Both the position numbers and the translations under genes were made by a program. From Desulfocapsa sulfexigens DSM 10523 (GTDB taxonomy: Bacteria > Desulfobacterota > Desulfobulbia > Desulfobulbales > Desulfocapsaceae): 32,000 nucleotides of DNA. Under the pieces are notes generated by a model. The model did not search any database. It was not told where the DNA came from and was given only the letters and a program-made list of their open reading frames with translations. The stretch covers positions 3,570,001-3,602,000 of the forward strand of contig NC_020304.1 in the NCBI RefSeq assembly GCF_000341395.1, given 5' to 3'. Below, in pieces: positions 5,326 to 20,390 of the stretch. The first letter of the stretch is position 1. The number at the start of each line of letters is the position of its first letter.

Positions 5326-6207
5326 TCATTCCCTTTCTCTCCATTTGTCAATCTGATGCTGGAACGGATAGGGAACATCCCCATTTTGTTCGGGATAATC
5401 AGCACTACCGGTCTCCAGATTCAAATCAGTGAAATCGGAGAGTAGTGGCTCGGATGCATGCAGGTATTTTGTGATCATTATCGGCCCGGCCCACAGGATA
5501 TACTGTTCGTTGTATTCTGCTTCAACTGAGGCTGATTGTGGAACCATCACCAGCTGCCCGCTGAGATGGTCAATGGCCATAACCTCAAGGGCAGTTTTGG
5601 CTCTCAGTATTTCATTATTAGCCAGGAACCATTCAATTCTGGTTCGCACGGTTCCAAACACATCCACTGTAACATATACATCGATTTCAGCTTCCGAAGG
5701 TGGTACAACTGCTACCCCCTGCAGAAAAAAGTAAGTCTGTAATAGACCCGAAAGGTATTGCAGATCATCAGATGTTATTTCCTCTGAGTTATGGTACGCT
5801 CCCAGTCCCTTATATTCCAGACCGATTTGTATTTCATTTCCACTTCCTGTTGTTTCGGTATGTTTCTGTTCAGGTACGGCAAGAACTGAATCCGTAGAAC
5901 TTCTGCTGGAGGACGAGGTACGACTTTTCGTATTTTGATCACTGCTTTGTGAATCGGTAGTTGATGTGGACGAGCCAGAGGTCATCGATTGATATCGACG
6001 AAAAGTTGATTTTTCAATCACGGGAGGCGATTGAATATAATCCCCACGTACCTGCGAAACGAGAGAGAATCGACCGCCAATCAGGTTTCCTGCGCCCGTA
6101 TCTCCAATAGCACTCACATAAAGATTAACTTTTTTACCACGTATCGTTGTAAGATCAATTTTCTTTATCGTTGCACGTGTTGCGGCTGCGACCAACTCCT
6201 GCTCCAC
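5326..6207 (-). CDS. hypothetical protein with a Ser/Thr-rich low-complexity tract, possibly 5'-truncated
   Basis: 293-aa ORF starting at GTG with no signal peptide. An in-frame stop lies 14 codons upstream, inside the 25-nt repeat at 6246..6270. I recognise no family. Confidence 0.4.
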   Translation of the reverse strand: MEQELVAAATRATIKKIDLTTIRGKKVNLYVSAIGDTGAGNLIGGRFSLVSQVRGDYIQSPPVIEKSTFRRYQSMTSGSSTSTTDSQSSDQNTKSRTSSSSRSSTDSVLAVPEQKHTETTGSGNEIQIGLEYKGLGAYHNSEEITSDDLQYLSGLLQTYFFLQGVAVVPPSEAEIDVYVTVDVFGTVRTRIEWFLANNEILRAKTALEVMAIDHLSGQLVMVPQSASVEAEYNEQYILWAGPIMITKYLHASEPLLSDFTDLNLETGSADYPEQNGDVPYPFQHQIDKWRERE

Positions 6208-6245
6208 GGCGAAGCGTTTCCCTCCACCGTGTCCTGGGGGAGTCA

Positions 6246-6701
6246 GGGGTCAAGTCTGCCTTTGACCTTTGTAAACTTTTTTCCTTATCGTTCAAGGTCT
6301 TTTCTCGGTCCACTGTCACTCTCAATTCTAAATTCCACTCGCTGGACAACACTACTTTCCTAAAAATGAGAACACCGTTACCTGGCCTTATAGTCCCCCC
6401 AATTGAACCCCAAGGACAAAACTAACCTGTGTCAAGGGATTATTTGTCGATTATTCATCCAGTTACCTAGATCAGTCCCCATTGCCCACAGGCTGTTATA
6501 CAGAAAAAAAATTAGTCAGAAAAAAGGGGTCAAGCCTGCCCTTGACCTTTCTCTTCAATCGAGCAGCGAATGATATGGGCAACCCTTTAGTTTACCGACT
6601 ATTTTCCACATAGCCAAGCGCAAAAAAAACATGGGAGCAGAAATTCCAGGTTGATTTGATATCACACATTCACCACAAAGGTCAAAGGGAGACTTGACCC
6701 C
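6246..6701. mobile_element. MITE-like 456-bp element bounded by 25-bp terminal inverted repeats (GGGGTCAAGTCTGCCTTTGACCTTT), with a third internal copy
   Basis: Left copy at 6246..6270 (+). Right copy at 6677..6701 (-, 24/25 match). Internal copy at 6526..6550 (+, GGGGTCAAGCCTGCCCTTGACCTTT). Each copy contains a GGTCAA/TTGACC hairpin. No coding capacity and no obvious target-site duplication. Confidence 0.55.
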
Positions 6702-8011
6702 TTTTTTTTTACAATCAATTCACCTTCCAGGTTACCGAAAATATAATGCCTGTCTGTAAAATCCGGTACGCCGTTTCCTGCATAGGCATCTATGCCAAGG
6801 GTTGTGTCACAAAACTGCATATCATCGCCGGTGGGGGAAAGTGTATCTTCATGCATTGTTTGATAGAGAAAGAGGGAACGATCTTCGAGATATTGGGTTG
6901 AATATTCGGCAGCCACCAGATTGACATAGCCTGGCTGGTTGCCAGAGATGGCAAAACCAGCTAACGCGTTTAAGGCAAAAAGAAAGGCGTTGTCATTTTC
7001 TGCAGCACTTCGGAGAGCTTCGGCAGAATGCTCATGCAGTGATGTTACCGTCAAACCAGTCAGGCTATGGTCGTTGGCATACCCGGTTAATTCAATGGCA
7101 AGATCAACAGAGACCTGGGTGGGGTCAATACCGGCCTGAAAAACATTATTAACAACCGATAAGGCATGCTCATCGGGCATTTTTTCCAGAAAAGGGGTAA
7201 AGTCATCGGGATTATCACTGCCGCTGATGGTCGAGAAAAGATTGTAGATGCATAGAGAAGAGGTTAATCCAACGATACTGTGAGCAGTCAGTGGATTTTG
7301 TGCATCAACAGATATAATAATTGGTGTGGAGACGGAAAGGCCGACGGACGAAACAATATCGTCCGTTGCGACAATATTAGAAACTGGCAACACAGTAGGA
7401 AGAGCAATAGGATTATCTGGTGAAAGAGCACTTGAGATGGCTTCAATAATATTGCCGCCGACACCTGTCACCCCTGGTGCGTTGTAGATAAAGGTTTGTG
7501 TCACATCTGTAGAATATTCAAGTGTGAGATTGGTGGCAAGAAAACCGCCCAGTGAATGTCCCGTTACTAAAAAACCGGAATGAAGATCACCTAAATCCAC
7601 CCATTTTTCTACTTGCGCTGAAAGTGCTTTGTATTGTGCTTGGTATTCACTTGTGCCCAGTGCCCCAATATCAATAACGTCGGTAATAACGTCGTTAAGA
7701 TCGTTAGTGCCGCGCACGGCAATTACTTGTTTACCACTGCTATCCTCAAAAAGTGTTACTGATAAACCGGTAGGATTGAGAAAGGTATGCTCCAAACCAA
7801 ATTCGTCAACGTAACTCTCTTCGACAGTTCCATCGTATTGGTCGATAACATTCCAATTACTGGAGAAATCTTGGGCTTGGGTGAGCGTCATGCCATTGCC
7901 ATTGTTTTGTAATGCATCGGTATAATCTTTACCAGACATTCCTGGAGACAGATTTGAGTATGATGCAAGTGCAAGTTCAGCTTGTAGGTAATATTCACTA
8001 ATCGTACTCAT
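6662..8011 (-). CDS. class-3 lipase (GHSLGG) domain protein, 3'-truncated paralog lacking the RTX region (P1)
   Basis: 449-aa ORF with a lipase-like head (AVRGT ... VTGHSLGGFLA; GHSLGG codons at 7544..7561). The C-terminal ~180 aa are nearly identical to the 1153-aa paralog. That homology stops at 6712, and the last 16 codons (VKKKGSSLPLTFVVNV) read through a poly-T tract and the 25-nt repeat. Confidence 0.8.
   Translation of the reverse strand: MSTISEYYLQAELALASYSNLSPGMSGKDYTDALQNNGNGMTLTQAQDFSSNWNVIDQYDGTVEESYVDEFGLEHTFLNPTGLSVTLFEDSSGKQVIAVRGTNDLNDVITDVIDIGALGTSEYQAQYKALSAQVEKWVDLGDLHSGFLVTGHSLGGFLATNLTLEYSTDVTQTFIYNAPGVTGVGGNIIEAISSALSPDNPIALPTVLPVSNIVATDDIVSSVGLSVSTPIIISVDAQNPLTAHSIVGLTSSLCIYNLFSTISGSDNPDDFTPFLEKMPDEHALSVVNNVFQAGIDPTQVSVDLAIELTGYANDHSLTGLTVTSLHEHSAEALRSAAENDNAFLFALNALAGFAISGNQPGYVNLVAAEYSTQYLEDRSLFLYQTMHEDTLSPTGDDMQFCDTTLGIDAYAGNGVPDFTDRHYIFGNLEGELIVKKKGSSLPLTFVVNV
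6712..7255 (-). repeat. linker-module repeat shared with 16038..16581
   Basis: Collinear with a constant offset of 9326 nt and no indels. Near-identical by eye with scattered substitutions. Encodes ...NLFSTIS..DDFTPFLEKMPD.HALSVVNNVFQAGID...RHYIFGNLEGELI in both lipase paralogs. Confidence 0.85.
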
Positions 8012-8571
8012 TTTTTATATTCCTTTGTGAAAATTGAAGATTCAAAATTGGAGTTTCCAGTGATATCGAAGCATGAGAAACTTGATCCATGCCATAATCC
8101 AGGCAAATCACCACCACCTCGACCATAACGGACATATTCACCTAACACTTTACCATCAATACGTCTGACAATTCGAGTTTGCTTGCGTGTTACCTGAGGA
8201 TCATTTCTGTGGTAATAAAAAAGGTCACTTTCATAAAAATAATTATCCGTCGGTTTTGCTTTGGATTTGTCTGGTATTTTAATTCTACCAAATTTGTCAA
8301 TTAGGTCAGGCGGTAGCTCCACAGTTTCATAGACTTTTACACCACCATCTTTTGCACAGAGCTTCTCCACTTTGAGATCCCAATATATCTTCTTGCCAGC
8401 TACTTCCCAGAAAGTTCCGCCAAGCCAGACCGAAGAAAGAAGCACTCCAAGAAGGATATGTGAAATCTTTTGTGTTAAGTTCGCAGGCTTCCAATGTTGC
8501 CAGATACGATAGAGTACCCAGCTCACAAACAGCCAAATTGCAATCAGTGTTAATAAATAAATCCCGCTCAT
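8008..8571 (-). CDS. two-TM membrane protein, lipase-associated partner family member I1 (candidate immunity or accessory protein)
   Basis: 187-aa ORF. Its stop overlaps the lipase start (ATGA at 8008..8011). GGAGGG lies 7 nt upstream of the ATG. Two N-terminal hydrophobic helices separated by a basic loop. VYETVE motif and a C-terminal RRIDGKVLGEYVRY motif are shared in pattern with the ORFs at 12931, 17436 and 19443. Confidence 0.75.
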   Translation of the reverse strand: MSGIYLLTLIAIWLFVSWVLYRIWQHWKPANLTQKISHILLGVLLSSVWLGGTFWEVAGKKIYWDLKVEKLCAKDGGVKVYETVELPPDLIDKFGRIKIPDKSKAKPTDNYFYESDLFYYHRNDPQVTRKQTRIVRRIDGKVLGEYVRYGRGGGDLPGLWHGSSFSCFDITGNSNFESSIFTKEYKK

Positions 8572-8640
8572 GCTGCCACCCTCCAGTCAAATCTTGTGCC
8601 GTCGCCGTAATCACCCATAATGAAATCTCCGTGGATAAAT

Positions 8641-8894
8641 GGGGTCAGAGTAATTTTAAACTCCGCCCCATCAAGAAGATAAATAAAACAACAATCGTAG
8701 CAATCCATTATTTTTCACTAAGAGTGAAATAATTAACATCAAAACGGAGAAGCATCAACATCTAACATCTGTTATATTAGTACGTTATAGATGCCTAAGT
8801 GCTAACATCATTGTCATTTCAATGCCTCCAGATGTTTTCCTAAAAATTAAAGATAAAAAATAATAAAAACAACATTTTCAAGCTGTTCTCTGTT
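8641..8894 (-). repeat. conserved cassette-upstream region U (homologous to 22160..22378)
   Basis: Begins with the 32-nt element GGGGTCAGAGTAATTTTAAACTCCGCCCCATC (8641..8672). Contains a 39-nt block (8810..8848) matching 22289..22327 at 38 of 39 positions. Overall similarity is roughly three quarters by eye. Confidence 0.7.
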
Positions 8895-11290
8895 CGGTGA
8901 CAACGGGGTCGGACCAAATTAACAGTTTGAATATTAAACATTTTATCTCCAAAAGCAGATCTTTCTGGGGCTTAAAACACCCTTTTCAGTATCAAAAACA
9001 GTACTGTAAAGAATGTGGTTACAATAAAGCTAAAACCCCGATGGTACTCAACCGCTCTATCTCATCACTCTCAATCCCAACAAGCACAGGGCAAGTGAAC
9101 CTGATCACTCCCTGCATTTCCATAGAGTGCATCATCACCGGCTTCACCAAACAAGTTATCATTGTCAGTATCACCGTAGAGTTCATCATTACCGTTTCCA
9201 CCATACAGATTGTCTTCCCCCTGGCCTCCATATAACGCATCATCACCAATACCGGTTCCATCACTATTATCGCCATAGAGATAATCATTGTCTGATTCCC
9301 CGTATAAGAGATCATTCCCGTCTCCGCCCCGGAGTTGATCCTCACCACTTCCACCATACAATTCATCCATACCTGAACCGGTATTATCAGGGTTATCTCC
9401 TAAAAGAAGGTCATTTCCATCTCCGCCATAAAGTGAATCATCGTCTTCTCCACCGGCAAGACTGTCATTACCTATTTCTCCATGCAATGCATCATTGCCC
9501 AGACCTCCCTGGAGTACGTCATCGCCATGACCACCAAAAAGTGCATCTATACCGTCGCCACCAAAAAGATCGTCATTGTCATCATCGCCATAGAGGACAT
9601 CATTTCCTCCTGAACCGTAAAGCACATCTTCACCGGAGCCACCATGCAATTCATCATTTCCAGTACCACTTAAATCGCCATAATCACCATACAGATGATC
9701 ATCACCATCTCCACCGGAAAGGATATCGTCACCTCCCTCGCCAGCGAGTGCATCGTCACCGATCTCACCATAAAGGGAATCATCTCCTCCTCCGCCAAGC
9801 AGTTGATCATTACCCAGGCCACCGTAAAGTAGATCCTCACCGGTACCTGTGTTATTCCATTCATCTCCTCTTAAGACATCGTCACCATCTCCGCCGAAAA
9901 GCTGATCATTATCAAGGCCGCCATACATATCATCGTTACCCTCTCCACCATAGAGGATATCATTGCCTTCCTGGCCATAAAGCCTGTCAAGATCTTCTTC
10001 TCCAAACAAAACATCATTACCAAGTGATCCCTGAAGAAGATCGTCACCTGTGCCGCCCAGCAGATAATCATCTCCAGCGTCACCAAATAGCCTGTCAACA
10101 CCTTCTTCTCCAATGAGGGTGTCGTTGCCATTTCCCCCCATCAGGTTATCATCACCTATTCCGCCAAAAAGGATATCATTACCGTCTCCACCCCATGCGT
10201 TATCATTATCAGATTCTCCGTAGAGCTTATCATCACCACCCATACCAAGGAGTTGATCATCACCCAGACCACCATAAAGGGAGTCATTACCGTTTATTCC
10301 AAACAACGTATCGGAACCACCATAGCCATACACTGTAAAGGTGGAGAGAGCGGATACGTCACTGTCAAACAGGACAGTTTCACTTCCATCTGCATATTGG
10401 ATACTAAAATGATAATTCCAGGTATCGGCTGTTATCTGGCTCAGACTTGAAACTTCCATCTCATCAGTACCAGCCAGGGAGTTGGTGTTTGGAGTGGGCT
10501 CTACATAGTCAGCCAGATTGAAGCCGAAATCGCCCGAGGAAAAGGAGTTTATGGTAAAATAGAAATTACTGGCCAGGGAAAACAGGTTCAGCGTTTGATT
10601 GGTGGAGTCATAACGAACTCTGTAATTAGCATCTTCGTAGATGTCGCTGTTTTCCTGAATTTGATTAAAGGTGAGACCTGTTATCTGATTGGCTCCATAC
10701 CAGATGGTACCCTGATTATCCGCATCGTCAACAATATCGCCGACACCGATATGGTAGGTGTCATTGCCGATACCGCCGTAAAGGGTGTCTTGAACAAAAT
10801 CATCCACACCATCTATGCCTGCCCCATATAAGATATCATCTCCCCCAGCACCGTTTATTGTATCAATGCCGGTGCCGCCGGAGATGGTATCTTGATCACT
10901 ACTTCCGGTCAGGGTGTCCTGGCCTGCCCCACCTTCTATGCGGGCAATGTTGGAGACTGTTATTCCTGTTAAGTCTATGGTGTTGTCGCCTGCGGTTCCG
11001 GCCAGTATATTTAGTCCTTCTCCACCGTCTATTATTTCTATGGAGTTTTCTGCAAGGGAGAGGGTGTTTACTCGGATGGTGTCATCCAGGTTGCCTCCGA
11101 GGATTTTATCCTCATCACCAGTACCGCCGTTGAAGGTGTCGAAGGCTTCAGGATCTTCATCTGTGCCATGGATGATGAAGGTGTCGTTTCCGGCTCCTCC
11201 GTTCATGGTGTCGCTGCCGGAGCCTCCTTCGAGGATGTCGTTGCCGGCATTGCCGGTTAGGGTGTCATTGCCTGCCATGCCGTAGAGGTG
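8895..11290 (-). repeat. large direct repeat, copy 1 (RTX coding region plus 176-bp downstream tail); partner is 13784..16017
   Basis: Collinear near-identity by eye from the REP-like end (CGGTGACAACGGGGTCGGACC) through the whole RTX region up to the DHLYGM codons (11276..11290 vs 16003..16017). The length difference is 162 nt, explained by two in-frame indels of 108 and 54 nt. Confidence 0.9.
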
Positions 11291-12934
11291 ATCGTCACTG
11301 AGAGCACCAATCAATTTGGCGCTGTCATCTCCTTCCGTGCCAAAGATATAATCTCCATATGGAAGTTCTTCGTCGGGAGGATTGAGTTCAATACCTGATT
11401 GCAGATCATGAAAGTGTTTCTGCTCAGAGTAATTGTGCATGGTGTGGTAGAGGAATTTTGTTCTATCTTCGAAGTATTGTGATGAAAAGTTATCTAAATC
11501 TAACTCGTTGTTTGCATTCAAACTGCTATATTGACTATTCGGGCCCGTTATCGTGATGGGATTCAACCTTTGTAAAGCAAAGCGATATGCCATGCCAGTA
11601 CCATTATCTTGGCTTGCAAACGAAATAATGTCAGACTCTGAGATATCACCTAAAAATGATATTTCATATTGGCCTTGTGAAGATTGGGTTGCATTTCGAA
11701 CTTGAAATATCTTTTCATAGAGTTCTTCTCGAGCAACATCCCCGTTCTTTACGTCGAATGGTGAATAATCCTGTACGCATATTTCACCAAAGGTATTGAT
11801 AACCGTTTCGAGCGTTATATGGTTGTCTCTTCCTTGCCGATATGCATTGAAGACAGGGAGAAGAGATTGAAAAAACTGCGATCCATCCATCGAAGAATAC
11901 ATATCATCCAAGCGGCCAAAAAGGTCATAAACCGCCAGAGAATCTGTCATCTGTTCTTTTCCATGACCCGCAGTTGTTCCTGATAGAGATACAGATTCAA
12001 TAAATATTCCTTGGTGATCTCCTTGCTGACCGAGGGCAAACACACTGTCCATGGTCGTCATTTCCAGGAACTTATCACCAAAAATATTTAATATTTTCGA
12101 ACTCTCAAAAGAATCGCTTCCCCCAAGCATAGCAAAGAGGTTACGGATGTTGGTCTCGCCGTTCCCGCTCAAGCCACTAAGCGCTTCTGTCATATACCCA
12201 GCACCATTTATGGTCACAACATCATCACAGACAGAACCGAAAAGCCGTGAGAATGCAGCGGCCAGATGCCCACCCAAACTATGACCTACTGCTGTAACCT
12301 GTCCTTCAATATCATGGGATAACGCACCATATTGTCTTTCATCCGTGAATATTTCGTTCGAATAGACATCGGTGTTGATAGTGTATACCGTGCCGGTTGG
12401 CATATCGATTATGACATTATCCAATGTCCGCAGGTATAGTTCATATGGGCCGGCTACACCCAGAGGCATAGCAGTTTGTTCTGCCGCAAGTAGAGCCGTT
12501 TTGTCCGTCAACAGCTCCAATTCCGCTGCTTTATAGACGGTATTTGGAGCTGCATTTATTCTTTGCCAGTCGTTATACATGTCGACTATTTGCTTAATCG
12601 CCAGCCCATCGTAAACAATGTCACCACCGTCTGTAACGAGTAGATCGTCAATTCCCGGTTCCGTACCTCGGCATGCATAATGGTATTTGCCTGTGTTCTT
12701 ATTCCGAAAAAGAGTAGCTGAAAAGCCTGTATCGGTGTTGGGTTGGTGATAAATCACTTCCCAATTGTTGACAAAATCTTCAGCTTGCTCAGCTGTCATT
12801 TTGCCCTCAAAAGCGCTGTTTTGTAAAGCGTCTCTTATATCATCCTCAATAGTTAGATCCTCTATTTTATCAAAAAGAACGTAGGCCGCTTCAGACAATA
12901 ACGCCATATCGTAATAAATGGATGAACTGCTCAT
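9071..12934 (-). CDS. giant lipase-RTX protein (class-3/family I.3-like GHSLGG lipase head + hemolysin-type Ca-binding repeats), P2
   Basis: 1287-aa ORF. Head motifs are ACRGT and AVGHSLGGHLAAAF, followed by a unique middle region. Then come two blocks of GGxGxDxUx nonapeptides (several dozen units) separated by a non-repeat beta-rich module. The ORF ends only 13 aa after the last repeat (..GSDQVHLPCACWD). Confidence 0.9.
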   Translation of the reverse strand: MSSSSIYYDMALLSEAAYVLFDKIEDLTIEDDIRDALQNSAFEGKMTAEQAEDFVNNWEVIYHQPNTDTGFSATLFRNKNTGKYHYACRGTEPGIDDLLVTDGGDIVYDGLAIKQIVDMYNDWQRINAAPNTVYKAAELELLTDKTALLAAEQTAMPLGVAGPYELYLRTLDNVIIDMPTGTVYTINTDVYSNEIFTDERQYGALSHDIEGQVTAVGHSLGGHLAAAFSRLFGSVCDDVVTINGAGYMTEALSGLSGNGETNIRNLFAMLGGSDSFESSKILNIFGDKFLEMTTMDSVFALGQQGDHQGIFIESVSLSGTTAGHGKEQMTDSLAVYDLFGRLDDMYSSMDGSQFFQSLLPVFNAYRQGRDNHITLETVINTFGEICVQDYSPFDVKNGDVAREELYEKIFQVRNATQSSQGQYEISFLGDISESDIISFASQDNGTGMAYRFALQRLNPITITGPNSQYSSLNANNELDLDNFSSQYFEDRTKFLYHTMHNYSEQKHFHDLQSGIELNPPDEELPYGDYIFGTEGDDSAKLIGALSDDHLYGMAGNDTLTGNAGNDILEGGSGSDTMNGGAGNDTFIIHGTDEDPEAFDTFNGGTGDEDKILGGNLDDTIRVNTLSLAENSIEIIDGGEGLNILAGTAGDNTIDLTGITVSNIARIEGGAGQDTLTGSSDQDTISGGTGIDTINGAGGDDILYGAGIDGVDDFVQDTLYGGIGNDTYHIGVGDIVDDADNQGTIWYGANQITGLTFNQIQENSDIYEDANYRVRYDSTNQTLNLFSLASNFYFTINSFSSGDFGFNLADYVEPTPNTNSLAGTDEMEVSSLSQITADTWNYHFSIQYADGSETVLFDSDVSALSTFTVYGYGGSDTLFGINGNDSLYGGLGDDQLLGMGGDDKLYGESDNDNAWGGDGNDILFGGIGDDNLMGGNGNDTLIGEEGVDRLFGDAGDDYLLGGTGDDLLQGSLGNDVLFGEEDLDRLYGQEGNDILYGGEGNDDMYGGLDNDQLFGGDGDDVLRGDEWNNTGTGEDLLYGGLGNDQLLGGGGDDSLYGEIGDDALAGEGGDDILSGGDGDDHLYGDYGDLSGTGNDELHGGSGEDVLYGSGGNDVLYGDDDNDDLFGGDGIDALFGGHGDDVLQGGLGNDALHGEIGNDSLAGGEDDDSLYGGDGNDLLLGDNPDNTGSGMDELYGGSGEDQLRGGDGNDLLYGESDNDYLYGDNSDGTGIGDDALYGGQGEDNLYGGNGNDELYGDTDNDNLFGEAGDDALYGNAGSDQVHLPCACWD

Positions 12935-13503
12935 CGTTTTTCCTCACCGGTTTGTTTGTAAGTTTTTTTTAACTCACTAAATTCCTTTTTTTTAATAGCT
13001 GGCTGTCTCAGATGTGTCCAGAATTTAAGATCGCTTGAAGAACCACTATATATTTGCACGCGTTTGGCTAACGTCTCATCGGTCTTAGTATCGATAATGA
13101 GTTCTTCTTGTGTTACGACGGGAAGAATGGGTAAGCGATGTTCAATAAATACCCAACCAATCCGCTGATTTAATTTATACCCCCTTGTAATACCAGTAGC
13201 TTCATAAGAAGGTGACAACTTCTTCCAAGTCAAAGTCTCAGCAACTCCAGGGTTCTCTGCCTTCCACTGTTCCAGAGTCTTATAGACCCAGAAACCTGAC
13301 CTGGTATGGACGAGATATTTGAAGGTGATCAGTGTCGGCAGATAATCCCAGAAAACAAGGTTGTACATTATAAAAGCAACCAACCCGCCCCATAACCATG
13401 CCCGCCTGCCTCTATTCTTAGCCCACCGGACAGCAAGAACGGTAACTCCGATCGAAACTGCCAAATAAAACACAAAAAAAACAATTACCGCTAAACCGAA
13501 CAT
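12931..13503 (-). CDS. two-TM membrane protein, lipase-associated partner family member I2
   Basis: 190-aa ORF. Its stop overlaps the P2 start (ATGA at 12931..12934). GGGGAGG RBS upstream. Layout is TM1, basic loop (RWAKNRGRR), TM2. Motifs VYKTLE and LIIDTKTDETLAKRVQIY. Confidence 0.75.
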   Translation of the reverse strand: MFGLAVIVFFVFYLAVSIGVTVLAVRWAKNRGRRAWLWGGLVAFIMYNLVFWDYLPTLITFKYLVHTRSGFWVYKTLEQWKAENPGVAETLTWKKLSPSYEATGITRGYKLNQRIGWVFIEHRLPILPVVTQEELIIDTKTDETLAKRVQIYSGSSSDLKFWTHLRQPAIKKKEFSELKKTYKQTGEEKR

Positions 13504-13520
13504 TCTTCTACCTCCCCGTT

Positions 13521-13773
13521 AATACGGGGTCGGACCAAGCTAACATGCTGAATGTTAAACATTTTGTCTCCAATAATAGGTGTTTTTATGGCTTAGAGTA
13601 CCCTTTTCAGCATCAAAAACGGTGCTGTAAGCAATTTCAGGCTCTTTCAAAACAGTAGCATCTTTGACTGAAACTATGGAGCGCTTCTGTGCCCGGCTTG
13701 CAAGTTGCTGCTGAATATCTTCTGTAAATGATTTTCTGCCAACGGCACTGGACTCACTCCAATCTTGATTTCT
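13521..13773 (-). pseudogene. 3' fragment of the RAYT-type transposase gene with its REP-like end (type B)
   Basis: Near-identical to 18487..18739 of the intact unit. Encodes only the C-terminal ~73 aa (NQDWSES..KNTYYWRQNV) and lacks the HUH and Tyr motifs. Starts with AATACGGGGTCGGACCAAGC (13521..13540). Confidence 0.85.
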
Positions 13774-13783
13774 CAGCAAGAAA

Positions 13784-16017
13784 CGGTGACAACGGGGTCG
13801 AACCAAGTTAACAGTTTGAATATTAAACATTTTACCTCCAAAAACAGATCTTTCTAGAGCTTAAAACACCCTTTTCAGTATCAAAAACAGTACTGTAAAG
13901 AATGTGGTTACAATAAAGCTAAAGCCCCGATGGTACTCAACCGCTCTATCTCATCACTCTCAATCCCAACAAGCACAGGGCAAGTGAACCTGATCACTGC
14001 CTGTATTTCCATAGAGTGCATCATCACCGGCTTCACCAAACAGGTTATCATTGTCAGTATCACCGTAGAGTTCATCATTACCATTTCCACCATACAGATT
14101 GTCTTCCCCTTGGCCTCCATATAACGCATCATCACCAATACCGGTTCCATCACTATTATCGCCATAGAGATAATCATTGTCTGATTCCCCGTATAAGAGA
14201 TCATTTCCGTCTCCGCCCCGGAGTTGATCATCACCACTTCCACCGTACAATTCATCCATACCTGAACCGGTATTATCAGGGTTATCTCCTAAAAGAAGGT
14301 CATTCCCATCTCCGCCATAAAGTGAATCATCGTCTTCTCCACCGGCAAGACTGTCATTACCTATTTCTCCATACAATGCATCATTGCCCAGACCTCCCTG
14401 GAGTACGTCATCGCCATGACCACCAAAAAGTGCATCTATACCGTCGCCACCAAAAAGATCGTCATTGTCATCATCGCCATAGAGGGTGTCATTTCCTCCT
14501 GAACCGTAAAGCACATCTTCACCGGAGCCACCATGCAATTCATCATTTCCAGTACCACTTAAATCGCCATAATCACCATACAGATGATCATCACCATCTC
14601 CACCGGAAAGGATATCGTCACCTCCCTCGCCAGCGAGTGCATCGTCACCGATCTCACCATAAAGGGAATCATCTCCTCCTCCGCCAAGCAGTTGATCATT
14701 ACCCAGGCCACCGTAAAGTAGATCCTCTCCGGTTCCTGTGTTATCCCATTCATCTCCTCTTAAGACATCGTCACCATCTCCGCCGAAAAGCTGGTCGTTA
14801 TCAAGGCCGCCATACATATCATCGTTACCCTCTCCACCATAGAGGATATCATTGCCTTCCTGGCCATAAAGCCTGTCAAGATCTTCTTCTCCAATGAGGG
14901 TGTCATTGCCATTTTGCCCCATCAGGTTATCATCACCTATTCCGCCAAAAAGGATATCATTACCGTCTCCACCCCATGCGTTATCATTATCAGATTCTCC
15001 GTAGAGCTTATCATCACCGCCCATACCCTGGAGTTGATCATCACCCAGACCACCATAAAGGGAGTCATTGCCGTTTATTCCAAACAACGTATCGGAACCA
15101 CCATAGCCATATACTGTAAAGGTGGAGAGAGCAGATACATCACTGTTAAACAGGATAGTTTCACTTCCATCTGCATGTTGGATACTGAAATGATAATTCC
15201 AGGTATCGGCTGTTATCTGGCTCAGACTTGAAATTTCTATCTCATCAGTACCAGTCAGGGAATTGGTGTTTGGGGTGGGCTCTACATAGTCAGCCAGATT
15301 GAAGCCGAAATCGCCCGAGGAAAAGGAGTTTATGGTAAAATAGAAATTACTGGCCAGGGAAAACAGGTTCAGCGTTTGATTGGTGGAGTCATAACGAACT
15401 CTGTAATTAGCATCTTCATAGATGTCACTGTTTTCCTGAACTTGATTAAAGGTGAGATCTGTTATCTGATTGGCTCCATACCAGATGGTACCCTGATTAT
15501 CAGCGTCGTCAACAATATCGCCGACACCGATATGATAGGTGTCATTGCCGATGCCGCCGGAAAGGGTGTCACGGACATTGTCTTCCTGGTTGGTTAATGT
15601 ACCGCCATAAAGGATATCATCTCCACTTGAACCGGTTATGGTGTCGGCTCCACCTCCGCCTTCTATTCGGTTTATGTGGGTTACTGTGATGCCGGTTAGG
15701 TCTATGGTGTTGTCGCCGCTGGTTCCGGCAAGGATGTTTTCTCCGGCTCCTCCGTCTATTCTTTCTATGGAGTTATCTGCAAGGGAGAGCGCGTTTACTC
15801 GGATGGTGTCGTCCAGGTTGCCTCCGAGGATTTTATCCTCATCACCAGTACCGCCGTTGAAGGTGTCGAAGGCTTCAGGATCTTCATCTGTGCCGTGGAT
15901 GATGAAGGTGTCGTTATCGGCTCCTCCGTTCATGGTGTCGCTGCCGGAGCCGCCTTCGAGGATATCGTTTCCGCCGTTGCCGGTTAGGGTGTCGTTACCG
16001 TCCATGCCGTAGAGGTG
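13784..16017 (-). repeat. large direct repeat, copy 2 (partner of 8895..11290)
   Basis: See copy 1. This copy carries the single hybrid version of the 26-nt AGCCTGTCAAGATCTTCTTCTCCAAT motif (from 14870) where copy 1 has two versions 108 nt apart. Confidence 0.9.
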
Positions 16018-17421
16018 GTCTTCCTTGGAATTGCCTTCAATCAATTCGCCTTCCAGGTTACCGAAAATATAATGCCTGTCTGTAAAATCCGGTACGCCGT
16101 TTCCTGCATAGGCATCTATGCCAAGGGTTGTGTCACAAAACTGTATATCATCGCCGGTGGGGGAAAGTGCATCTTCATGCATTGTTTGATAGAGAAAGAG
16201 GGAACGATCTTCGAGATATTGGGTTGAATATTCGGCAGCCACCAGATTGACATAGCCTGGCTGGTTGCCAGAGATGGCAAAACCAGCTAACGCGTTTAAG
16301 GCAAAAAGAAAAGCGTTGTCATTTTCTGCAGCACTTCGGAGAGCTTCGGCAGAATGCTCATGCAGTGATGTTACCGTCAAACCAGTCAGGCTATGGTCGT
16401 TGGCATACCCGGTTAATTCAATGGCAAGATCAACAAAGACCTGGGTGGTGTCAATACCGGCCTGAAAAACATTATTAACAACCGATAAGGCATGCCCATC
16501 GGGCATTTTTTCCAGAAAAGGAGTAAAGTCATCGGCATTGTTGCTGCTGCTGATGGTTGAAAAAAGGTTGTAGACGTACAGGGATTCGACAAGAGTACCG
16601 ATAGAATGGTAGTGAACGGGGTTGAATGTACTATCGCTGATAGAAATATTGACATCGGCACTCCCGATATCAGTTCCAAGATCGGCGACAAGATCATGGG
16701 GTATATCCCACCAAGTTTCTGAGGATTTGACATTTGTTACCAGGCTGTCGACTCCGTTCTTATTAGACTCAAAGTTGGAATAAGCGTCATAAAGCTCTTG
16801 TGTGATTTCTACTGGCCCAAACAACGATTCACCGGTTATATCATCATAACCAATAAAGGCTTCTTTATAATATCTCCCATTACTTGTCGATAATTCTGGA
16901 GATTCCAGATCTTTTGCACCTGGAGAATTATAAGTGTAACTCTCATCAACAAAATCGGTATAGGTCGCGGTAAAGATCTGAGCTAATGCACCACCCAAGG
17001 AATGACCTGTAACAGTAAGCTTTTCTCCGCTTAATACCTTATCATCTTCTTGAAGCTTTTCGAAAAATGATACCATGTCTTCAAATTGGAGCGGCGTATT
17101 GCCTGCTTTTAGCCCGAGAATATCATCATCCCAATCAGTGCCAATCAATTGGTCGGTTCCACGGATGGCCAGTATTTTTTTACCACTATTAATGTCTTCA
17201 AACAACGTGGCGCTGAATCCGCTTTCTGGACCTATGTTGTATTCGGCGCTGGTGGCAAGGACATTGTAGTGCTCAACAAAATTATCAGCCTGTTTTTGAG
17301 TAAAATTACGGTCATTCTTTAGTGACTTTATAATGTCATCATCCAATGTAGTTTGTATGATATCAATATAGCTTGCATCAGCCAATTCACCAAATTGTAA
17401 CAATTCTGGAATAGTTGCCAT
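13960..17421 (-). CDS. giant lipase-RTX protein, P3 (different lipase head, same RTX chassis as P2)
   Basis: 1153-aa ORF. Head motifs are AIRGT and VTGHSLGGALAQIF. The linker is identical in type to P1. The RTX blocks and the C-terminus (..GSDQVHLPCACWD) are near-identical to P2. Confidence 0.9.
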   Translation of the reverse strand: MATIPELLQFGELADASYIDIIQTTLDDDIIKSLKNDRNFTQKQADNFVEHYNVLATSAEYNIGPESGFSATLFEDINSGKKILAIRGTDQLIGTDWDDDILGLKAGNTPLQFEDMVSFFEKLQEDDKVLSGEKLTVTGHSLGGALAQIFTATYTDFVDESYTYNSPGAKDLESPELSTSNGRYYKEAFIGYDDITGESLFGPVEITQELYDAYSNFESNKNGVDSLVTNVKSSETWWDIPHDLVADLGTDIGSADVNISISDSTFNPVHYHSIGTLVESLYVYNLFSTISSSNNADDFTPFLEKMPDGHALSVVNNVFQAGIDTTQVFVDLAIELTGYANDHSLTGLTVTSLHEHSAEALRSAAENDNAFLFALNALAGFAISGNQPGYVNLVAAEYSTQYLEDRSLFLYQTMHEDALSPTGDDIQFCDTTLGIDAYAGNGVPDFTDRHYIFGNLEGELIEGNSKEDHLYGMDGNDTLTGNGGNDILEGGSGSDTMNGGADNDTFIIHGTDEDPEAFDTFNGGTGDEDKILGGNLDDTIRVNALSLADNSIERIDGGAGENILAGTSGDNTIDLTGITVTHINRIEGGGGADTITGSSGDDILYGGTLTNQEDNVRDTLSGGIGNDTYHIGVGDIVDDADNQGTIWYGANQITDLTFNQVQENSDIYEDANYRVRYDSTNQTLNLFSLASNFYFTINSFSSGDFGFNLADYVEPTPNTNSLTGTDEIEISSLSQITADTWNYHFSIQHADGSETILFNSDVSALSTFTVYGYGGSDTLFGINGNDSLYGGLGDDQLQGMGGDDKLYGESDNDNAWGGDGNDILFGGIGDDNLMGQNGNDTLIGEEDLDRLYGQEGNDILYGGEGNDDMYGGLDNDQLFGGDGDDVLRGDEWDNTGTGEDLLYGGLGNDQLLGGGGDDSLYGEIGDDALAGEGGDDILSGGDGDDHLYGDYGDLSGTGNDELHGGSGEDVLYGSGGNDTLYGDDDNDDLFGGDGIDALFGGHGDDVLQGGLGNDALYGEIGNDSLAGGEDDDSLYGGDGNDLLLGDNPDNTGSGMDELYGGSGDDQLRGGDGNDLLYGESDNDYLYGDNSDGTGIGDDALYGGQGEDNLYGGNGNDELYGDTDNDNLFGEAGDDALYGNTGSDQVHLPCACWD
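16038..16581 (-). repeat. linker-module repeat shared with 6712..7255
   Basis: See 6712..7255. Confidence 0.85.
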
Positions 17422-17435
17422 CTCTAGCCCCCTAG

Positions 17436-18149
17436 CTAATTATCTTTTGATTTCAGTGTGTTATATATCAATACTTCACTATTACCTTTAAATGGGCAAA
17501 GTGTTCCAAGAGAACCATCAACATTGAGCAATGTCGCCCTAAGCCACCCTCTATTCCATCTGTACATTACTCGAATCCCCAAAGTCTCATTATGATGTCT
17601 GTCATTGATTTCCGTATAGATAAATTTATCTATAGTCGGTATTGCCAGGATTCTTTGGTCTTTGTTAGGCTGATAAGCTACCTCATACCTGCTGACTTCA
17701 TCAGGTTGCAATGGCTTCACTGCAAAACAAGGTATTTCCTGGTCAAAGGATTCTTTAAACTTATATTCATCCTTCTTTTTTGGCTTATAGCACCCTTCAG
17801 AACTTGCATCATTTAACCAATAACTACGAAAGAATTCACCGGTTTCTTCAACCTGGTAATCAATATATTTATAATTTTTATTTGGCATGCGGGGAGTACG
17901 TTTTATTCTCAATTCGCCCACATAAAACCCTTCCACATTCTCCACGGTCTTATAAATCTTCATGCCGGATTTAAATTTGCAGAAGTACCAGAAGGTGGGG
18001 TAGCCGATTATCACATCCCAGCTAGGAATTAGAGCCAGAATAATAATTCCAATGATTCTGCCTTTTGTTGATTTTGCGACCAAAACAATTACCAGTAATC
18101 CCAAAAGGAGGTAGATAGCTGCACCAAATATGACAAGAATCTGAATCAT
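17436..18149 (-). CDS. two-TM membrane protein, lipase-associated partner family member I3
   Basis: 237-aa ORF ending 14 nt upstream of the P3 start, with an AGGGGG RBS in the gap. Layout is TM1, KSTKGR loop, TM2. Motifs IYKTVE and YTEINDRHHNETLGIRVMY. Confidence 0.75.
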   Translation of the reverse strand: MIQILVIFGAAIYLLLGLLVIVLVAKSTKGRIIGIIILALIPSWDVIIGYPTFWYFCKFKSGMKIYKTVENVEGFYVGELRIKRTPRMPNKNYKYIDYQVEETGEFFRSYWLNDASSEGCYKPKKKDEYKFKESFDQEIPCFAVKPLQPDEVSRYEVAYQPNKDQRILAIPTIDKFIYTEINDRHHNETLGIRVMYRWNRGWLRATLLNVDGSLGTLCPFKGNSEVLIYNTLKSKDN

Positions 18150-18361
18150 TGCTCTCTCTCCTTTGTTTTTATCTCTCGGTGAAGCATGATAACAAGGACA
18201 AGACTTATCAAGACAATGATTCCGGGAGGTATGAGTAATATATAAAAATTATCTCCATCCTTTCCTTCCCTCATGGCCAGTCCAATCATCCGAACAAACC
18301 AGCTCGTACCAAATAATATCCCGGCATAGCCGACTAATAACAAAACTATTCTGAACATCAT
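18146..18361 (-). CDS. small two-TM membrane protein (71 aa), first gene of the cassette-3 operon
   Basis: Its stop overlaps the I3 start (ATGA at 18146..18149). Two hydrophobic helices. AAAGGTGAGAGA RBS-like sequence before the ATG. Confidence 0.55.
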   Translation of the reverse strand: MMFRIVLLLVGYAGILFGTSWFVRMIGLAMREGKDGDNFYILLIPPGIIVLISLVLVIMLHREIKTKEREQ

Positions 18362-18482: not shown

Positions 18483-18486
18483 TATT

Positions 18487-19434
18487 AATACGGGGTCGGA
18501 CCAAGCTAACATGCTGAATGTTAAACATTTTGTCTCCAATAATAGGTGTTTTTATGGCTTAGAGTACCCTTTTCAGCATCAAAAACAGTGCTGTAAGGAA
18601 TTCCAGGCTCTTTCAAAACAGTAGCATCTTTGACTGAAAGTATGGATCGCTTCTGTGCCCGGCTTGCAAGTTGCTGCTGAATATCTTCTGTAAATGATTT
18701 CCTGCCAACGGCAATGGACTCACTCCAATCTTGATTTCTTGTTAGGACGTTATTGTTTAGCTCAGCTGTTATCCAGTTAGTGTGCTCTTCGCGAAATCTG
18801 TTTTCATCCTGCATTGAAAAATAATCCAACAACATCTTCCTGTTGATAATGCCGTAACGCTTTGGAGGATTTTGAATTTCATTGTAACCACTATTTCTGT
18901 ATTCAGATGGATGTGATACGACGCCTGCCCTGACCATATTAAGATCAATATAGACCATGCATTTTGCAAGATGGTTGATTGTGTCAACGGCCGTGGCATG
19001 ATATCGGTCTTCCCAAAACGAACCTTTCCTCTGTTTCCGACTATTGAACTCCTGAGCTGTTCTTCCTGCAATTAACTGAAGACTTTGTGGAATAGTTTTT
19101 TCCCCTGTATCGACAACAAGTAAGTGGATATGGTTGGAAGTGACAATGTAATTTAGAACGCAAAGCCCATACCGCTTTTTTGCTTCGAATAACCAATAAA
19201 GCCAGCGTTTTCTGTCTTTTTCAAATTTCAGTAAAAACTCCTGCTTATGACATCGGTGTGTGATGTGCCAAACACAACCAGGAATATAATGTCTATTTGC
19301 TCGTGGCATGGTAGTTTAAATTTTCTTAGAAGGTTGTTTTGGACAACAAAAAGTTACCTTTAAGTGTTTATATGGCTTTTATTTCATAATATTTCTTGTT
19401 ATTCCTATATATTGGCTTGGTCCGACCCCGTATT
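18487..19434 (-). mobile_element. RAYT/IS200-like unit bounded by perfect 20-bp inverted repeats (AATACGGGGTCGGACCAAGC)
   Basis: 18487..18506 is the exact reverse complement of 19415..19434. The match breaks on both sides. The repeats enclose the 262-aa Y1 transposase ORF. This is the REP-flanked arrangement typical of REP-associated tyrosine transposases. Confidence 0.8.
18521..19309 (-). CDS. IS200-like Y1 (HUH) transposase, REP-associated tyrosine transposase (RAYT) type
   Basis: 262-aa ORF with N-terminus MPRANRHYIPGCVWHITHRC. HUH motif SNHIHLLV. Tyr motif YIDLNMVRAGVV (compare YxxxNPVRAGLV in COG1943/PF01797 proteins). Carries a ~100-aa C-terminal extension. Confidence 0.85.
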   Translation of the reverse strand: MPRANRHYIPGCVWHITHRCHKQEFLLKFEKDRKRWLYWLFEAKKRYGLCVLNYIVTSNHIHLLVVDTGEKTIPQSLQLIAGRTAQEFNSRKQRKGSFWEDRYHATAVDTINHLAKCMVYIDLNMVRAGVVSHPSEYRNSGYNEIQNPPKRYGIINRKMLLDYFSMQDENRFREEHTNWITAELNNNVLTRNQDWSESIAVGRKSFTEDIQQQLASRAQKRSILSVKDATVLKEPGIPYSTVFDAEKGTLSHKNTYYWRQNV

Positions 19435-19442
19435 CAACCGAG

Positions 19443-20390
19443 TTACCTCCGGTTTTCATGATATTTTTTTGATAATATTTTCAGCAAAGAATTATTTCTC
19501 CCTTGACGCGATCCATAAACATCTATTGATCCGAACAAAATCTTGTCAACAAACTGATAGGCCTGTTTGTCACCAAGCACCTGATGAAAATCAGGATTTG
19601 CACCGCCAAATTCGGAAAGCCAGTTCCCATATGCCATATACCTGCGGGAGAAGGCGATCACCTCGTTTTTCTCCATATCGGTGATGGTGATCTCGTCGGT
19701 GTGTAATAGTCTGGAGGCGGGGTAGCCGGTCTTTACCATGTTGAAATCCACCCGGTAGCGCATGGGTGGCAGTTTGTCCGGGGAAGCGAAGCCCTCAGCC
19801 CGATCCATGATGCTTTGTAATTCGCTTTTCCATGGTTCGTAATATGCACCAAACTCCGTAGAATTTTTTTCTATTTCTCTGATTGTCCGCCACAGTTCTC
19901 TGTTATCTAGACCCTTGCCACCCTTGCGGCGGACCTCCCTTGCACTTTCTTTCATAGCGTCCAGTTCCCGTTTTTTCTGATCCCGAGCTGGTCGCATTTT
20001 TTCACTCTCGGCAAAAGTTGAAGCATCGGCCCGGTACAGATAGATTTTCCCGTCATCGCCATTCACGGCCAGGGCCTGGAGATGCACGCCGTCAAGATAT
20101 TTTTCAACCATGCTTTCACGAAAGTGTTTGTCAAATCCCGGCCAGACATTGTCCTGCCAATACACAGAAATCGGCGCTTCAACGGTCTGATGAATCACCT
20201 GCAAGGGCTGCTTGCCGTAATACTCAAACAGCAAGTTGCACAGGATCGGCCGCCAGAATGGGCCGAAGATGAGCAGCAGCACTCCCAGCCACACCACTGC
20301 CTTCGACTTCGTCCACCGCTTGACGAGATACAACACAATCGCTCCCGCAAGCAGATAAATGGTTACAACAATAAGCAACGCTATTCCCAT
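19443..20390 (-). CDS. two-TM membrane protein, partner family member I4 (orphan: no adjacent lipase gene)
   Basis: 315-aa ORF. Layout is TM1, KRWTKSK loop, TM2. Motifs IHQTVE and ITITDMEKNEVIAFSRRYMAY. Its stop lies 8 nt from the RAYT inverted repeat. Confidence 0.7.
   Translation of the reverse strand: MGIALLIVVTIYLLAGAIVLYLVKRWTKSKAVVWLGVLLLIFGPFWRPILCNLLFEYYGKQPLQVIHQTVEAPISVYWQDNVWPGFDKHFRESMVEKYLDGVHLQALAVNGDDGKIYLYRADASTFAESEKMRPARDQKKRELDAMKESAREVRRKGGKGLDNRELWRTIREIEKNSTEFGAYYEPWKSELQSIMDRAEGFASPDKLPPMRYRVDFNMVKTGYPASRLLHTDEITITDMEKNEVIAFSRRYMAYGNWLSEFGGANPDFHQVLGDKQAYQFVDKILFGSIDVYGSRQGRNNSLLKILSKKYHENRR

Follow-up and report, generated by a model that had tools for sequence, protein, structure and literature searches.

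A stretch of 32 kb from Desulfocapsa sulfexigens DSM 10523 (hereafter the window, meaning the whole of the analyzed DNA) contains three paralogous genes, P1, P2, and P3, for proteins with an N-terminal lipase head that bears the motif GHSLGG. Each of them is preceded by a gene for a membrane protein (partners I1, I2, and I3, respectively), and in P2 and P3 the lipase is followed by a long region of repeats-in-toxin (RTX) blocks. What is such a locus for, and how did it arise? An initial annotation of the same DNA proposed a mirror image of polymorphic toxin loci, in which the exchangeable unit is an upstream immunity gene plus the N-terminus of the toxin. The balance of the evidence leans, without compelling it, toward reading the locus as an orphan array of such immunity and N-terminal lipase toxin cassettes, from a polymorphic toxin family built on RTX proteins of type I secretion systems (T1SS). 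This family of lipase-headed giant secreted calcium-binding proteins is apparently widespread and undescribed. The D. sulfexigens locus itself is probably a relic, shaped by rearrangement associated with repetitive extragenic palindromic (REP) elements and REP-associated tyrosine transposases (RAYTs).

All genes of the locus lie on the minus strand, in the 5'-to-3' order I4 (a fourth partner-family gene), RAYT gene, S3, I3, P3, two RAYT 3'-end fragments, I2, P2, a RAYT fragment, I1, P1, and three REP-like hairpins. The cassette genes and their parts, with protein lengths in amino acids (aa), are the following.

19443-20390, minus strand: I4 (UWK_03228, 315 aa), a lone partner-family gene; the next gene is the RAYT gene, and there is no lipase
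18146-18361, minus strand: S3, a 71-aa two-helix membrane protein, with an ATGA overlap with I3 that represents translational coupling
17436-18149, minus strand: I3 (UWK_03225, 237 aa), partner of P3, a two-helix membrane hairpin plus a beta-rich domain
13960-17421, minus strand: P3 lipase gene (1153 aa), annotated as "Ca2+-binding protein, RTX toxin"
16576-17421, minus strand: P3 lipase head, residues 1-282, with GHSLGG at 16990-17007
16018-16575, minus strand: P3 linker, with the motif QYLEDRSLFL at 16192-16221
13960-16017, minus strand: P3 RTX region, ending "...GSDQVHLPCACWD*" within an RTX block
12931-13503, minus strand: I2 (UWK_03222, 190 aa), partner of P2
9071-12934, minus strand: P2 lipase gene (1287 aa), annotated as "Ca2+-binding protein, RTX toxin"
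11291-12934, minus strand: P2 lipase head with its own linker, residues 1-548, with GHSLGG at 12269-12286 and QYFEDRTKFL at 11450-11479
9071-11290, minus strand: P2 RTX region, truncated like that of P3 and with the identical end "...GSDQVHLPCACWD"
8008-8571, minus strand: I1 (UWK_03220, 187 aa), partner of P1
6662-8011, minus strand: P1, orphan lipase gene (UWK_03219, 449 aa), with GHSLGG at 7544-7561
7249-8011, minus strand: P1 head
6712-7248, minus strand: P1 linker
6662-6711, minus strand: P1 tail, supplied by a REP-like hairpin

The open reading frames of the three lipase genes proved to be as initially annotated, and so did the ATGA stop/start overlaps at 8008-8011 (I1/P1), 12931-12934 (I2/P2), and 18146-18149 (S3/I3) and the gap of 14 nt between I3 and P3.

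The three lipase genes are conserved and variable in different parts. Between the first RTX block and a point 176 nt beyond the stop codon, the identity of P2 and P3 is 88-98%; in a self-comparison by blastn, positions 8895-10005 matched 13784-14894 (97.8%), 10083-10789 matched 14864-15570 (95.5%), and 10905-11290 matched 15632-16017 (87.9%). The heads are only distantly related, with 25-36% identity between P2 and either P1 or P3; both observations had already been made in the initial annotation. P1 and P3 are 54% identical overall, a value that counts in their near-identical linker (6712-7248 matching 16038-16574, 97.0% over 537 bp). P3 is a mosaic, its RTX region being P2-like and its linker P1-like. 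Between P2 and P3, the synonymous divergence (dS) is 0.06 at the 3' end and climbs until it reaches 0.37 at the first RTX block. This gradient toward the head, together with the mosaic structure of P3, fits recombination at domain borders. A candidate for such a border is the linker motif Q-Y-[LF]-x-D-R-x-x-F-L, found in P1 (6866-6895), P2 (11450-11479), P3 (16192-16221), and 25 of 59 long relatives, some 70-90 residues ahead of the first RTX repeat. By analogy with the VENN motif of CdiA, it may mark the boundary between variable and constant parts.

If the head and the partner form a cassette, they should be found together elsewhere. A genome scan with the head pattern [VI][TV]GHSLGG[AF]L and a metagenome scan with the I3 family yielded at least 159 further loci (at least 164 in total; loci are numbered with the prefix L). 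The module of a partner followed by a head on one strand occurs in at least 73 loci from other bacteria. When heads were the query, those retrieved have a partner directly upstream and in the same orientation, and in the reciprocal direction, the partner-first metagenome scan, a lipase head lies directly downstream of 57 of the 68 partner genes that have at least 300 nt of downstream room. To compare types, partners were assigned by phmmer to I1, I2, or I3, and heads by blastp to P1, P2, or P3. In the foreign modules the partner type predicts the head type in 20 of 21 cases: I1 precedes P1 in nine of nine, I2 precedes P2 in three of three (L002, L012, and L014), and I3 precedes P3 in eight of nine. 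The single mismatch is a partner match of 28 bits. No shuffle among 200,000 reached this agreement, and after related modules were collapsed only 2 of 200,000 did. Different types coexist in one genome, as in this window, L002, and L014, and thus the association is not merely a reflection of phylogeny. The co-variation of heads and partners, on which the initial annotation had made its proposal depend, is therefore observed across genomes.

Complete loci elsewhere encode a giant lipase-RTX protein of 1800-3300 aa beside genes for the ATP-binding cassette (ABC) protein, membrane fusion protein (MFP), and outer-membrane factor (OMF) of a T1SS. Among the module-bearing loci of at least 9 kb, 16 of 28 have T1SS components in the retrieved stretch. 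An example is provided by L004, with the order I3-type partner, 1845-aa lipase-RTX gene, C39-ABC gene, and MFP gene; in L006, a partner and a lipase-RTX gene are followed by OMF, ABC, and MFP genes. L002 is more elaborate: there, an I2-type partner and a P2-type head, truncated and 514 aa long, are followed by an S3 homolog, a partner of the I3 type, a P3-type lipase-RTX gene of 2433 aa, OMF, and ABC. The export genes found to adjoin related loci are those of T1SS; these loci were not scanned for genes of type VI secretion systems (T6SS).

Arrays of short cassettes next to a full-length gene are also observed. In L014, from Ca. Thiodiazotropha, a lipase-RTX gene for a protein of 1858 aa or more has three to four short modules upstream of it, and L006, L007, and L089 are similar. 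Two Arcobacteraceae loci, L010 3383-10524 and L011 1248-7481 (metagenome-assembled genome CBDETN010000024.1), combine lipase heads and non-lipase heads, each with its own upstream membrane protein. The non-lipase heads have 464-602 aa, two of them with LysM, and one of the upstream membrane proteins has MORN repeats. All these heads and the 2055-aa main gene have in common a 3' linker of 510-650 bp that is 92-97% identical. The linker identity of P1 and P3 is the same phenomenon. The linker that the orphans and the main gene have in common is conserved, and it provides a homology arm for head swapping. The description of P1 as an orphan module in the initial annotation thus agrees with its near-identical linker, while its lack of RTX repeats has a cause of its own: P1 lacks them because a REP-like hairpin cuts the gene just before the RTX region.

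Of the two Pfam domains that the initial annotation had expected, HemolysinCabind was recognized strongly in P2 (E=3.5e-85) and P3 (E=2.9e-76), with about 20 stretches in each and none in P1, whereas Lipase_3 was just above the cut-off of 22 bits in P3 (23.0), below it in P1 (19.5), and without a match in P2. P3 also approached Mbeg1-like (20.2 bits, cut-off 21.1) and was near the threshold of DUF6792, and P1 and P3 weakly matched the NCBIfam "SA1320 family". In an alignment of 21 heads (P3 numbering), GHSLGG with S141, H272, D96, R87-G88, and N230 are all invariant. Searches of PDB sequences with the heads gave marginal alpha/beta-hydrolase matches only. The best PDB fold match of the P3 head is 9cys_A (E=9e-6), a T6SS lipase effector of Enterobacter cloacae in a toxin/immunity complex, followed by monoacylglycerol lipases.

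P3-related heads are found outside RTX proteins. They occur on effectors of the type IV secretion system (T4SS) with the XVIPCD domain, in Xanthomonas sp. Leaf148 (L043 9021-11293) and Stenotrophomonas maltophilia (L062 11696-13030); a further related head is found in Neisseria sp. (L064 9246-11260). An upstream gene precedes the head in L043 and L064, and in L064 it is a lipoprotein gene. Pfam found no XVIPCD (PF20410) in P1-P3. The head family is thus common to T1SS- and T4SS-delivered proteins, and such sharing of a head between delivery systems is what toxin domains typically show.

The upstream genes, which the initial annotation had regarded as different from each other, turned out to be distant homologs within one superfamily. 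The weak alignment of I1-I4 with one another covers a two-helix hairpin and, after it, a "vYkTvE" motif; phmmer joins proteins of the I2 and I3 types (E of about 1e-5), and I4 weakly matches I3-type partners. In a search of 1.84 billion representative proteins, the partner-family profile recovers 1122 representative clusters (E<=1e-3), and the partners of the window match no family of Pfam or NCBIfam. A structure was modeled for I3 only: the AlphaFold2 model (pLDDT, the predicted local distance difference test, of 79) is beta-rich, and Foldseek gave no PDB match for it at E<=0.001, with FrpD and the solved Tli proteins not listed. Four Cys residues of the beta-rich domain are invariant in the alignment of the I3 family. 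The two-helix hairpin is present in at least 51 of 109 distinct partner homologs and replaced by a lipobox in 19, as in the I1-type proteins of L016 ("...LGGC") and L017 ("...ITAC") encoded upstream of P1-type lipase-RTX genes. A domain hung interchangeably on a lipobox or a membrane hairpin is most simply extracytoplasmic. Both the Cys residues and the lipoprotein relatives indicate that the soluble domain of the partner is probably periplasmic.

T1SS substrates bypass the periplasm, and therefore a periplasmic partner is a poor fit as a folding or export helper. By analogy with T6SS Tli, X-Tfi, and TilA, it would be well explained as protection against an incoming lipase. Two other identities of the partner were considered and rejected. 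In other RTX operons, the gene of an HlyC-type activating acyltransferase sits upstream of the toxin gene; the partner here is a membrane protein without a Pfam match. A Lif foldase disagrees with the absence of a Pfam match, the upstream position of the gene, the beta-rich fold, and T1SS export.

Partner genes also occur apart from lipases. Lone ones stand among housekeeping genes in L102, L103, and L106, and tandem ones are found in L112 and L119; these genes and I4 behave as orphan immunity genes would. In L089, a divergent lipase head comes after an I4-type relative (5714-6553). Homologs of S3 (about 85% identity) are confined to the closest I3-type modules, those of L002/L086, L003, and L088.

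What, then, is the state of the locus in D. sulfexigens? The initial annotation took the RTX region as a conserved chassis. Instead, it stops short in both P2 and P3: after the last RTX block there is no C-terminal non-repeat secretion region, both proteins end mid-block ("...GSDQVHLPCACWD"), and the ends carry only about nine non-repeat residues and three Cys. The collinearity of P3 with its relatives in L004 (1845 aa) and L002 (2433 aa) is limited to their first 1040-1216 aa. Beyond the end of P3, these relatives have more RTX repeats, cadherin-like and Big_9 domains, and finally a C-terminal region without repeats (HCBP_related; "...DADGNGSGAAVEFALLTSRPEISASDFMIAAS"), a type of region in which T1SS signals reside. 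In total, relatives collinear with P2 and P3 extend 700-1200 residues further. A degenerate copy of a RAYT 3' end starts about 55 nt beyond the stop codons of both P2 and P3. Neither T1SS genes nor T6SS genes (VgrG, PAAR, Hcp) were found in the 32-kb window. Since P2 and P3 have no secretion region and the 32 kb hold no T1SS, we regard the locus as an array of orphan cassettes and not as an armed system. Opposite the RTX regions of P2 and P3, on the plus strand, lie His-rich antisense open reading frames ("HHHRLH...", 9127-10116 and 14016-14897) that are by-products of GGxGxD codons and not genes.

The elements that accompany the breaks are the following.

18521-19309, minus strand: RAYT-like Y1 transposase gene (UWK_03227; Pfam Y1_Tnp, E=2.6e-10)
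18485-18739, minus strand: RAYT 3' end plus downstream sequence, the master repeat copy (blastn and alignment, as for the next three)
13519-13773, minus strand: RAYT 3'-end copy, 97% identical, just upstream of I2
13792-13903, minus strand: degenerate RAYT 3'-end remnant (81%) after the P3 stop
8903-9014, minus strand: degenerate RAYT 3'-end remnant (81%) after the P2 stop
6245-6272, 6515-6559, and 6668-6712, no strand assigned: three REP-like hairpins, GGGGTCAAG-N7-CTTGACC, with GGTCAAG...CTTGACC arms

The RAYT gene scores 62 bits against NCBIfam REP_Tyr_transpos (cut-off 80). All four RAYT 3'-end copies terminate at GGTCCGACCCCGT. The hairpin at 6668-6712 forms the 3' end of P1 and encodes its last 16 codons. 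The middle hairpin, 6515-6559, is terminator-like, and a scan for promoters and terminators gave nothing usable except the REP-like hairpins. The 91-aa "gene" UWK_03223 (13555-13830), the annotation given to the copy at 13519-13773, is a mere C-terminal fragment of RAYT. In a relative, L005 1127-4050 (GCA_947258675.1), a P3-type lipase is broken after 184 codons by an IS21-family element (IstA/IstB), with the I3-type partner intact.

The following scenario is suggested for the family. The secretion signal of a T1SS substrate is C-terminal, and accordingly the polymorphic end and the immunity gene are mirrored relative to contact-dependent inhibition (CDI) and Rhs systems. We infer that the full-length lipase-RTX protein would be exported by T1SS, C-terminus first, and that its N-terminal lipase would attack the envelope phospholipids of competitors. 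The partner, whose anchor in the inner membrane is the two-helix hairpin (in relatives, a lipoprotein signal), would act from the periplasm and neutralize the matching lipase in a type-specific manner, shielding sibling cells. New head/partner pairs could enter by recombination, through linkers or RTX blocks at one end and the upstream flank at the opposite end. In D. sulfexigens, P2 and P3 would be a recent duplicate pair cut mid-RTX at the RAYT remnant, and I4 may have lost its lipase to the RAYT gene. Most likely, this locus now represents an immunity repertoire and a silent reservoir of heads, and not an active weapon.

Several points weigh against this scenario. The toxicity of the lipase, binding by the partner, and protection are predictions, and a T1SS-exported head would still need a path into the periplasm of a target cell. 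The lack of T1SS genes concerns the 32-kb window, and elsewhere in the genome there may be a T1SS or a full-length master gene. On the partner side, many of the weak matches (18-26 bits) depend on a motif of about 30 residues, and the charges beside the membrane hairpin leave the topology undecided. On the head side, the catalytic triad, whose alignment the initial annotation had suggested as a check, has an invariant Ser, an invariant His, and an ambiguous acid, which could be the invariant D96 or an E/D near residue 265; the AlphaFold2 model of the P3 head is reliable for residues 1-170 only (pLDDT 58 beyond 170), and the fold matches have low TM-scores. Finally, the ratio of non-synonymous to synonymous divergence (dN/dS) between paralogs is 0.14-0.29, indicative of purifying selection that includes the supposedly silent RTX parts of P2 and P3. 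These values fit recent derivation or gene conversion from functional genes, yet they also allow residual function.

The last point leads to the alternative that survives best, although we consider it unlikely: the toxin/immunity assignment is right, but P2 and P3 are still exported, by a T1SS encoded elsewhere in the genome and with an unconventional C-terminus. Both reading frames are intact (1153 aa in P3 and 1287 aa in P2), and over the last 930 nt, with 12 synonymous and 6 non-synonymous differences between them, dN/dS is 0.14. T1SS signals are poorly conserved, and the search for T1SS genes was confined to 32 kb. However, both proteins end mid-RTX with about nine non-repeat residues, the far longer collinear relatives have an HCBP_related C-terminus, the break coincides with a RAYT remnant, and T1SS genes absent from the 32 kb are adjacent in 16 of 28 relatives.

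A still less probable alternative is that the proteins are surface-retained or host-directed RTX proteins, adhesin-like or MARTX-like, with a lipase that acts on eukaryotic or environmental lipids; the partner would then be an anchor that binds the N-terminus, as in the original view of FrpD and FrpC. What exits last of a T1SS substrate is its N-terminus, and LapA-type adhesins can keep it at the cell surface. The cadherin-like and Big_9 domains of the L002 relative agree with this, as does the status of one carrier, Ca. Thiodiazotropha, as a symbiont, and the lipoprotein FrpD, encoded upstream, does bind the N-terminus of FrpC (PMC6759196). On the other hand, the carriers seem for the most part to be bacteria that live free in sediment or water, antibacterial T4SS and T6SS make use of related heads, and an anchor needs no diversification in lockstep with the head, no lone genes, and no orphan arrays.

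Least probable, and in our opinion very unlikely, is an array of ordinary nutritional RTX exolipases of family I.3, Pseudomonas- or Serratia-like, with the partner as a foldase, chaperone, or secretion adaptor: an N-terminal GHSLGG lipase plus RTX is the family I.3 layout, PDB 2z8x was matched via its RTX part, a private chaperone would also pair specifically, and Lif foldases are membrane-anchored and periplasmic, but the heads have no detectable sequence similarity to I.3 catalytic domains, the partner has no Pfam Lif match and its domain apparently resides in the very compartment that T1SS substrates skip, partners occur alone without a lipase, truncated heads, some of them non-lipase, form arrays on a common linker, and related heads are carried by effectors of a bacteria-killing T4SS.

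Comparison with known systems shows both likeness and difference. Family I.3 lipases (PML of Pseudomonas sp. MIS38 and Serratia LipA; 2z8x) resemble P2 and P3 in the N-terminal GHSLG lipase followed by RTX, and they use T1SS export; they differ in the catalytic domain, which is not detectably similar, and in having no known polymorphism or orphans. They are about 480-620 aa long and are not known to have an upstream partner. The Tle/Tli pairs of T6SS (E. cloacae, PDB 9cys) share the GxSxG lipase head and a periplasmic Tli, and differ in their T6SS linkage, whereas this window has no T6SS genes and related loci adjoin T1SS. CDI (CdiA-CT/CdiI) and Rhs systems likewise have a conserved body, a variable toxin end, adjacent immunity, orphans with a homology arm, and lone immunity genes. 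In those systems, however, the toxin is C-terminal and the immunity gene downstream; here the order is reversed, the orphans lie upstream of the main gene, and the delivery is by T1SS/RTX and not by two-partner secretion (TPS), T6SS, or a type VII secretion system (T7SS). In terms of the features of polymorphic toxins (Zhang et al., 2012), we observed alternative heads on a shared body, an adjacent co-varying partner, and orphans with a homology arm; a C-terminal toxin with downstream immunity was not observed, this arrangement being mirrored.

The mirrored layout of immunity gene and N-terminal toxin, for which the initial annotation knew of no described lipase-RTX counterpart, is supported by the pairing, the orphan modules, and the presence of T1SS in relatives; the layout as such has precedents. 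One is TslA/TilA of Staphylococcus aureus, a T7SS lipase toxin with reverse domain order and an upstream immunity lipoprotein (PMC10730906). It shares with this family the N-terminal phospholipase/lipase head, C-terminal targeting, the upstream extracytoplasmic immunity gene, and a variable number of immunity genes; by its description, it is set apart as a Gram-positive T7SS protein with an LXG-like C-terminus, DUF576 immunity, no RTX, and no linker-sharing orphan heads described. Another precedent is X-Tfe/X-Tfi of the Xanthomonadales-like killing T4SS, where the layout is also mirrored (PMC6536674, PMC6759196), with a variable N-terminal toxin (including Lipase_3/DUF2974), a C-terminal signal, and an upstream immunity gene that often encodes a lipoprotein. 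There the signal is XVIPCD for VirD4 and not RTX/T1SS, and the pairs are scattered, with no shared-linker arrays.

A precedent with T1SS secretion was proposed by Bayer-Santos et al., who suggested that the T1SS RTX protein FrpC and the upstream lipoprotein FrpD of Neisseria meningitidis form a toxin/immunity pair, and who noted that 221 RTX proteins carry an N-terminal domain like that of Smlt3024 (PMC6759196). As in this family, a large T1SS RTX protein is involved, and the FrpC N-terminus is bound by an upstream envelope protein; the head is not a lipase, the partner fold is different, and the toxin/immunity idea for FrpC/FrpD is a hypothesis. A search of the linker and RTX region gave RTX matches only, and no FrpC self-processing module. 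Burroughs et al. described Min-Wnt toxin domains N-terminal to RTX repeats (PMC12419801), and in the 2012 polymorphic-toxin survey T1SS appears only as the route of RTX toxins (PMC3482391). In the literature covered, to which subscription journals mostly do not belong, we found no account of lipase-RTX genes with this partner family of two transmembrane helices or of mirrored orphan arrays.

Polymorphic toxins are established for the type V secretion system (CDI), T6SS, and T7SS, and variable effector/immunity pairs for killing T4SS, while an antibacterial role of large T1SS RTX proteins has so far been a hypothesis (FrpC/FrpD). The comparative data make this hypothesis concrete and testable, offering a defined head family, an unannotated partner family of about 1100 clusters, and mirrored orphan arrays with shared linkers. 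A broader reading, tentative but far from implausible, is that of a widespread T1SS interbacterial weapon across Proteobacteria, with exchangeable N-terminal heads, upstream periplasmic immunity, and upstream orphans. The partner clusters would then form a lipase-immunity family, QYLxDRxxFL could be a site of recombination or demarcation, and the FrpC/FrpD proposal would be vindicated. Such a weapon would be the T1SS counterpart of the CDI, Rhs, and LXG systems. If this is confirmed, many environmental annotations as "RTX toxin/Ca2+-binding protein" would get a new meaning, and the question would arise how a protein released by T1SS brings a lipase to the envelope of a competitor. Tractable relatives with complete loci are found in Arcobacteraceae, Sulfurimonas, Thiobacillus, Herminiimonas, and Ca. 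Thiodiazotropha.

The remaining genes of the window include a histidine kinase and a response regulator, a DUF4915 gene, a ComM-like ATPase, QueD/QueE, and LpxB. Directly downstream of the P1 hairpins lies UWK_03218 (5326-6207, minus strand), a 293-aa protein with a GTG start, a Ser/Thr-rich middle, and no Pfam family. The gene of the DUF4915/TIGR03032 family (21038-22123, minus strand; E=1e-122 to 1e-129) is located about 650 nt upstream of I4.

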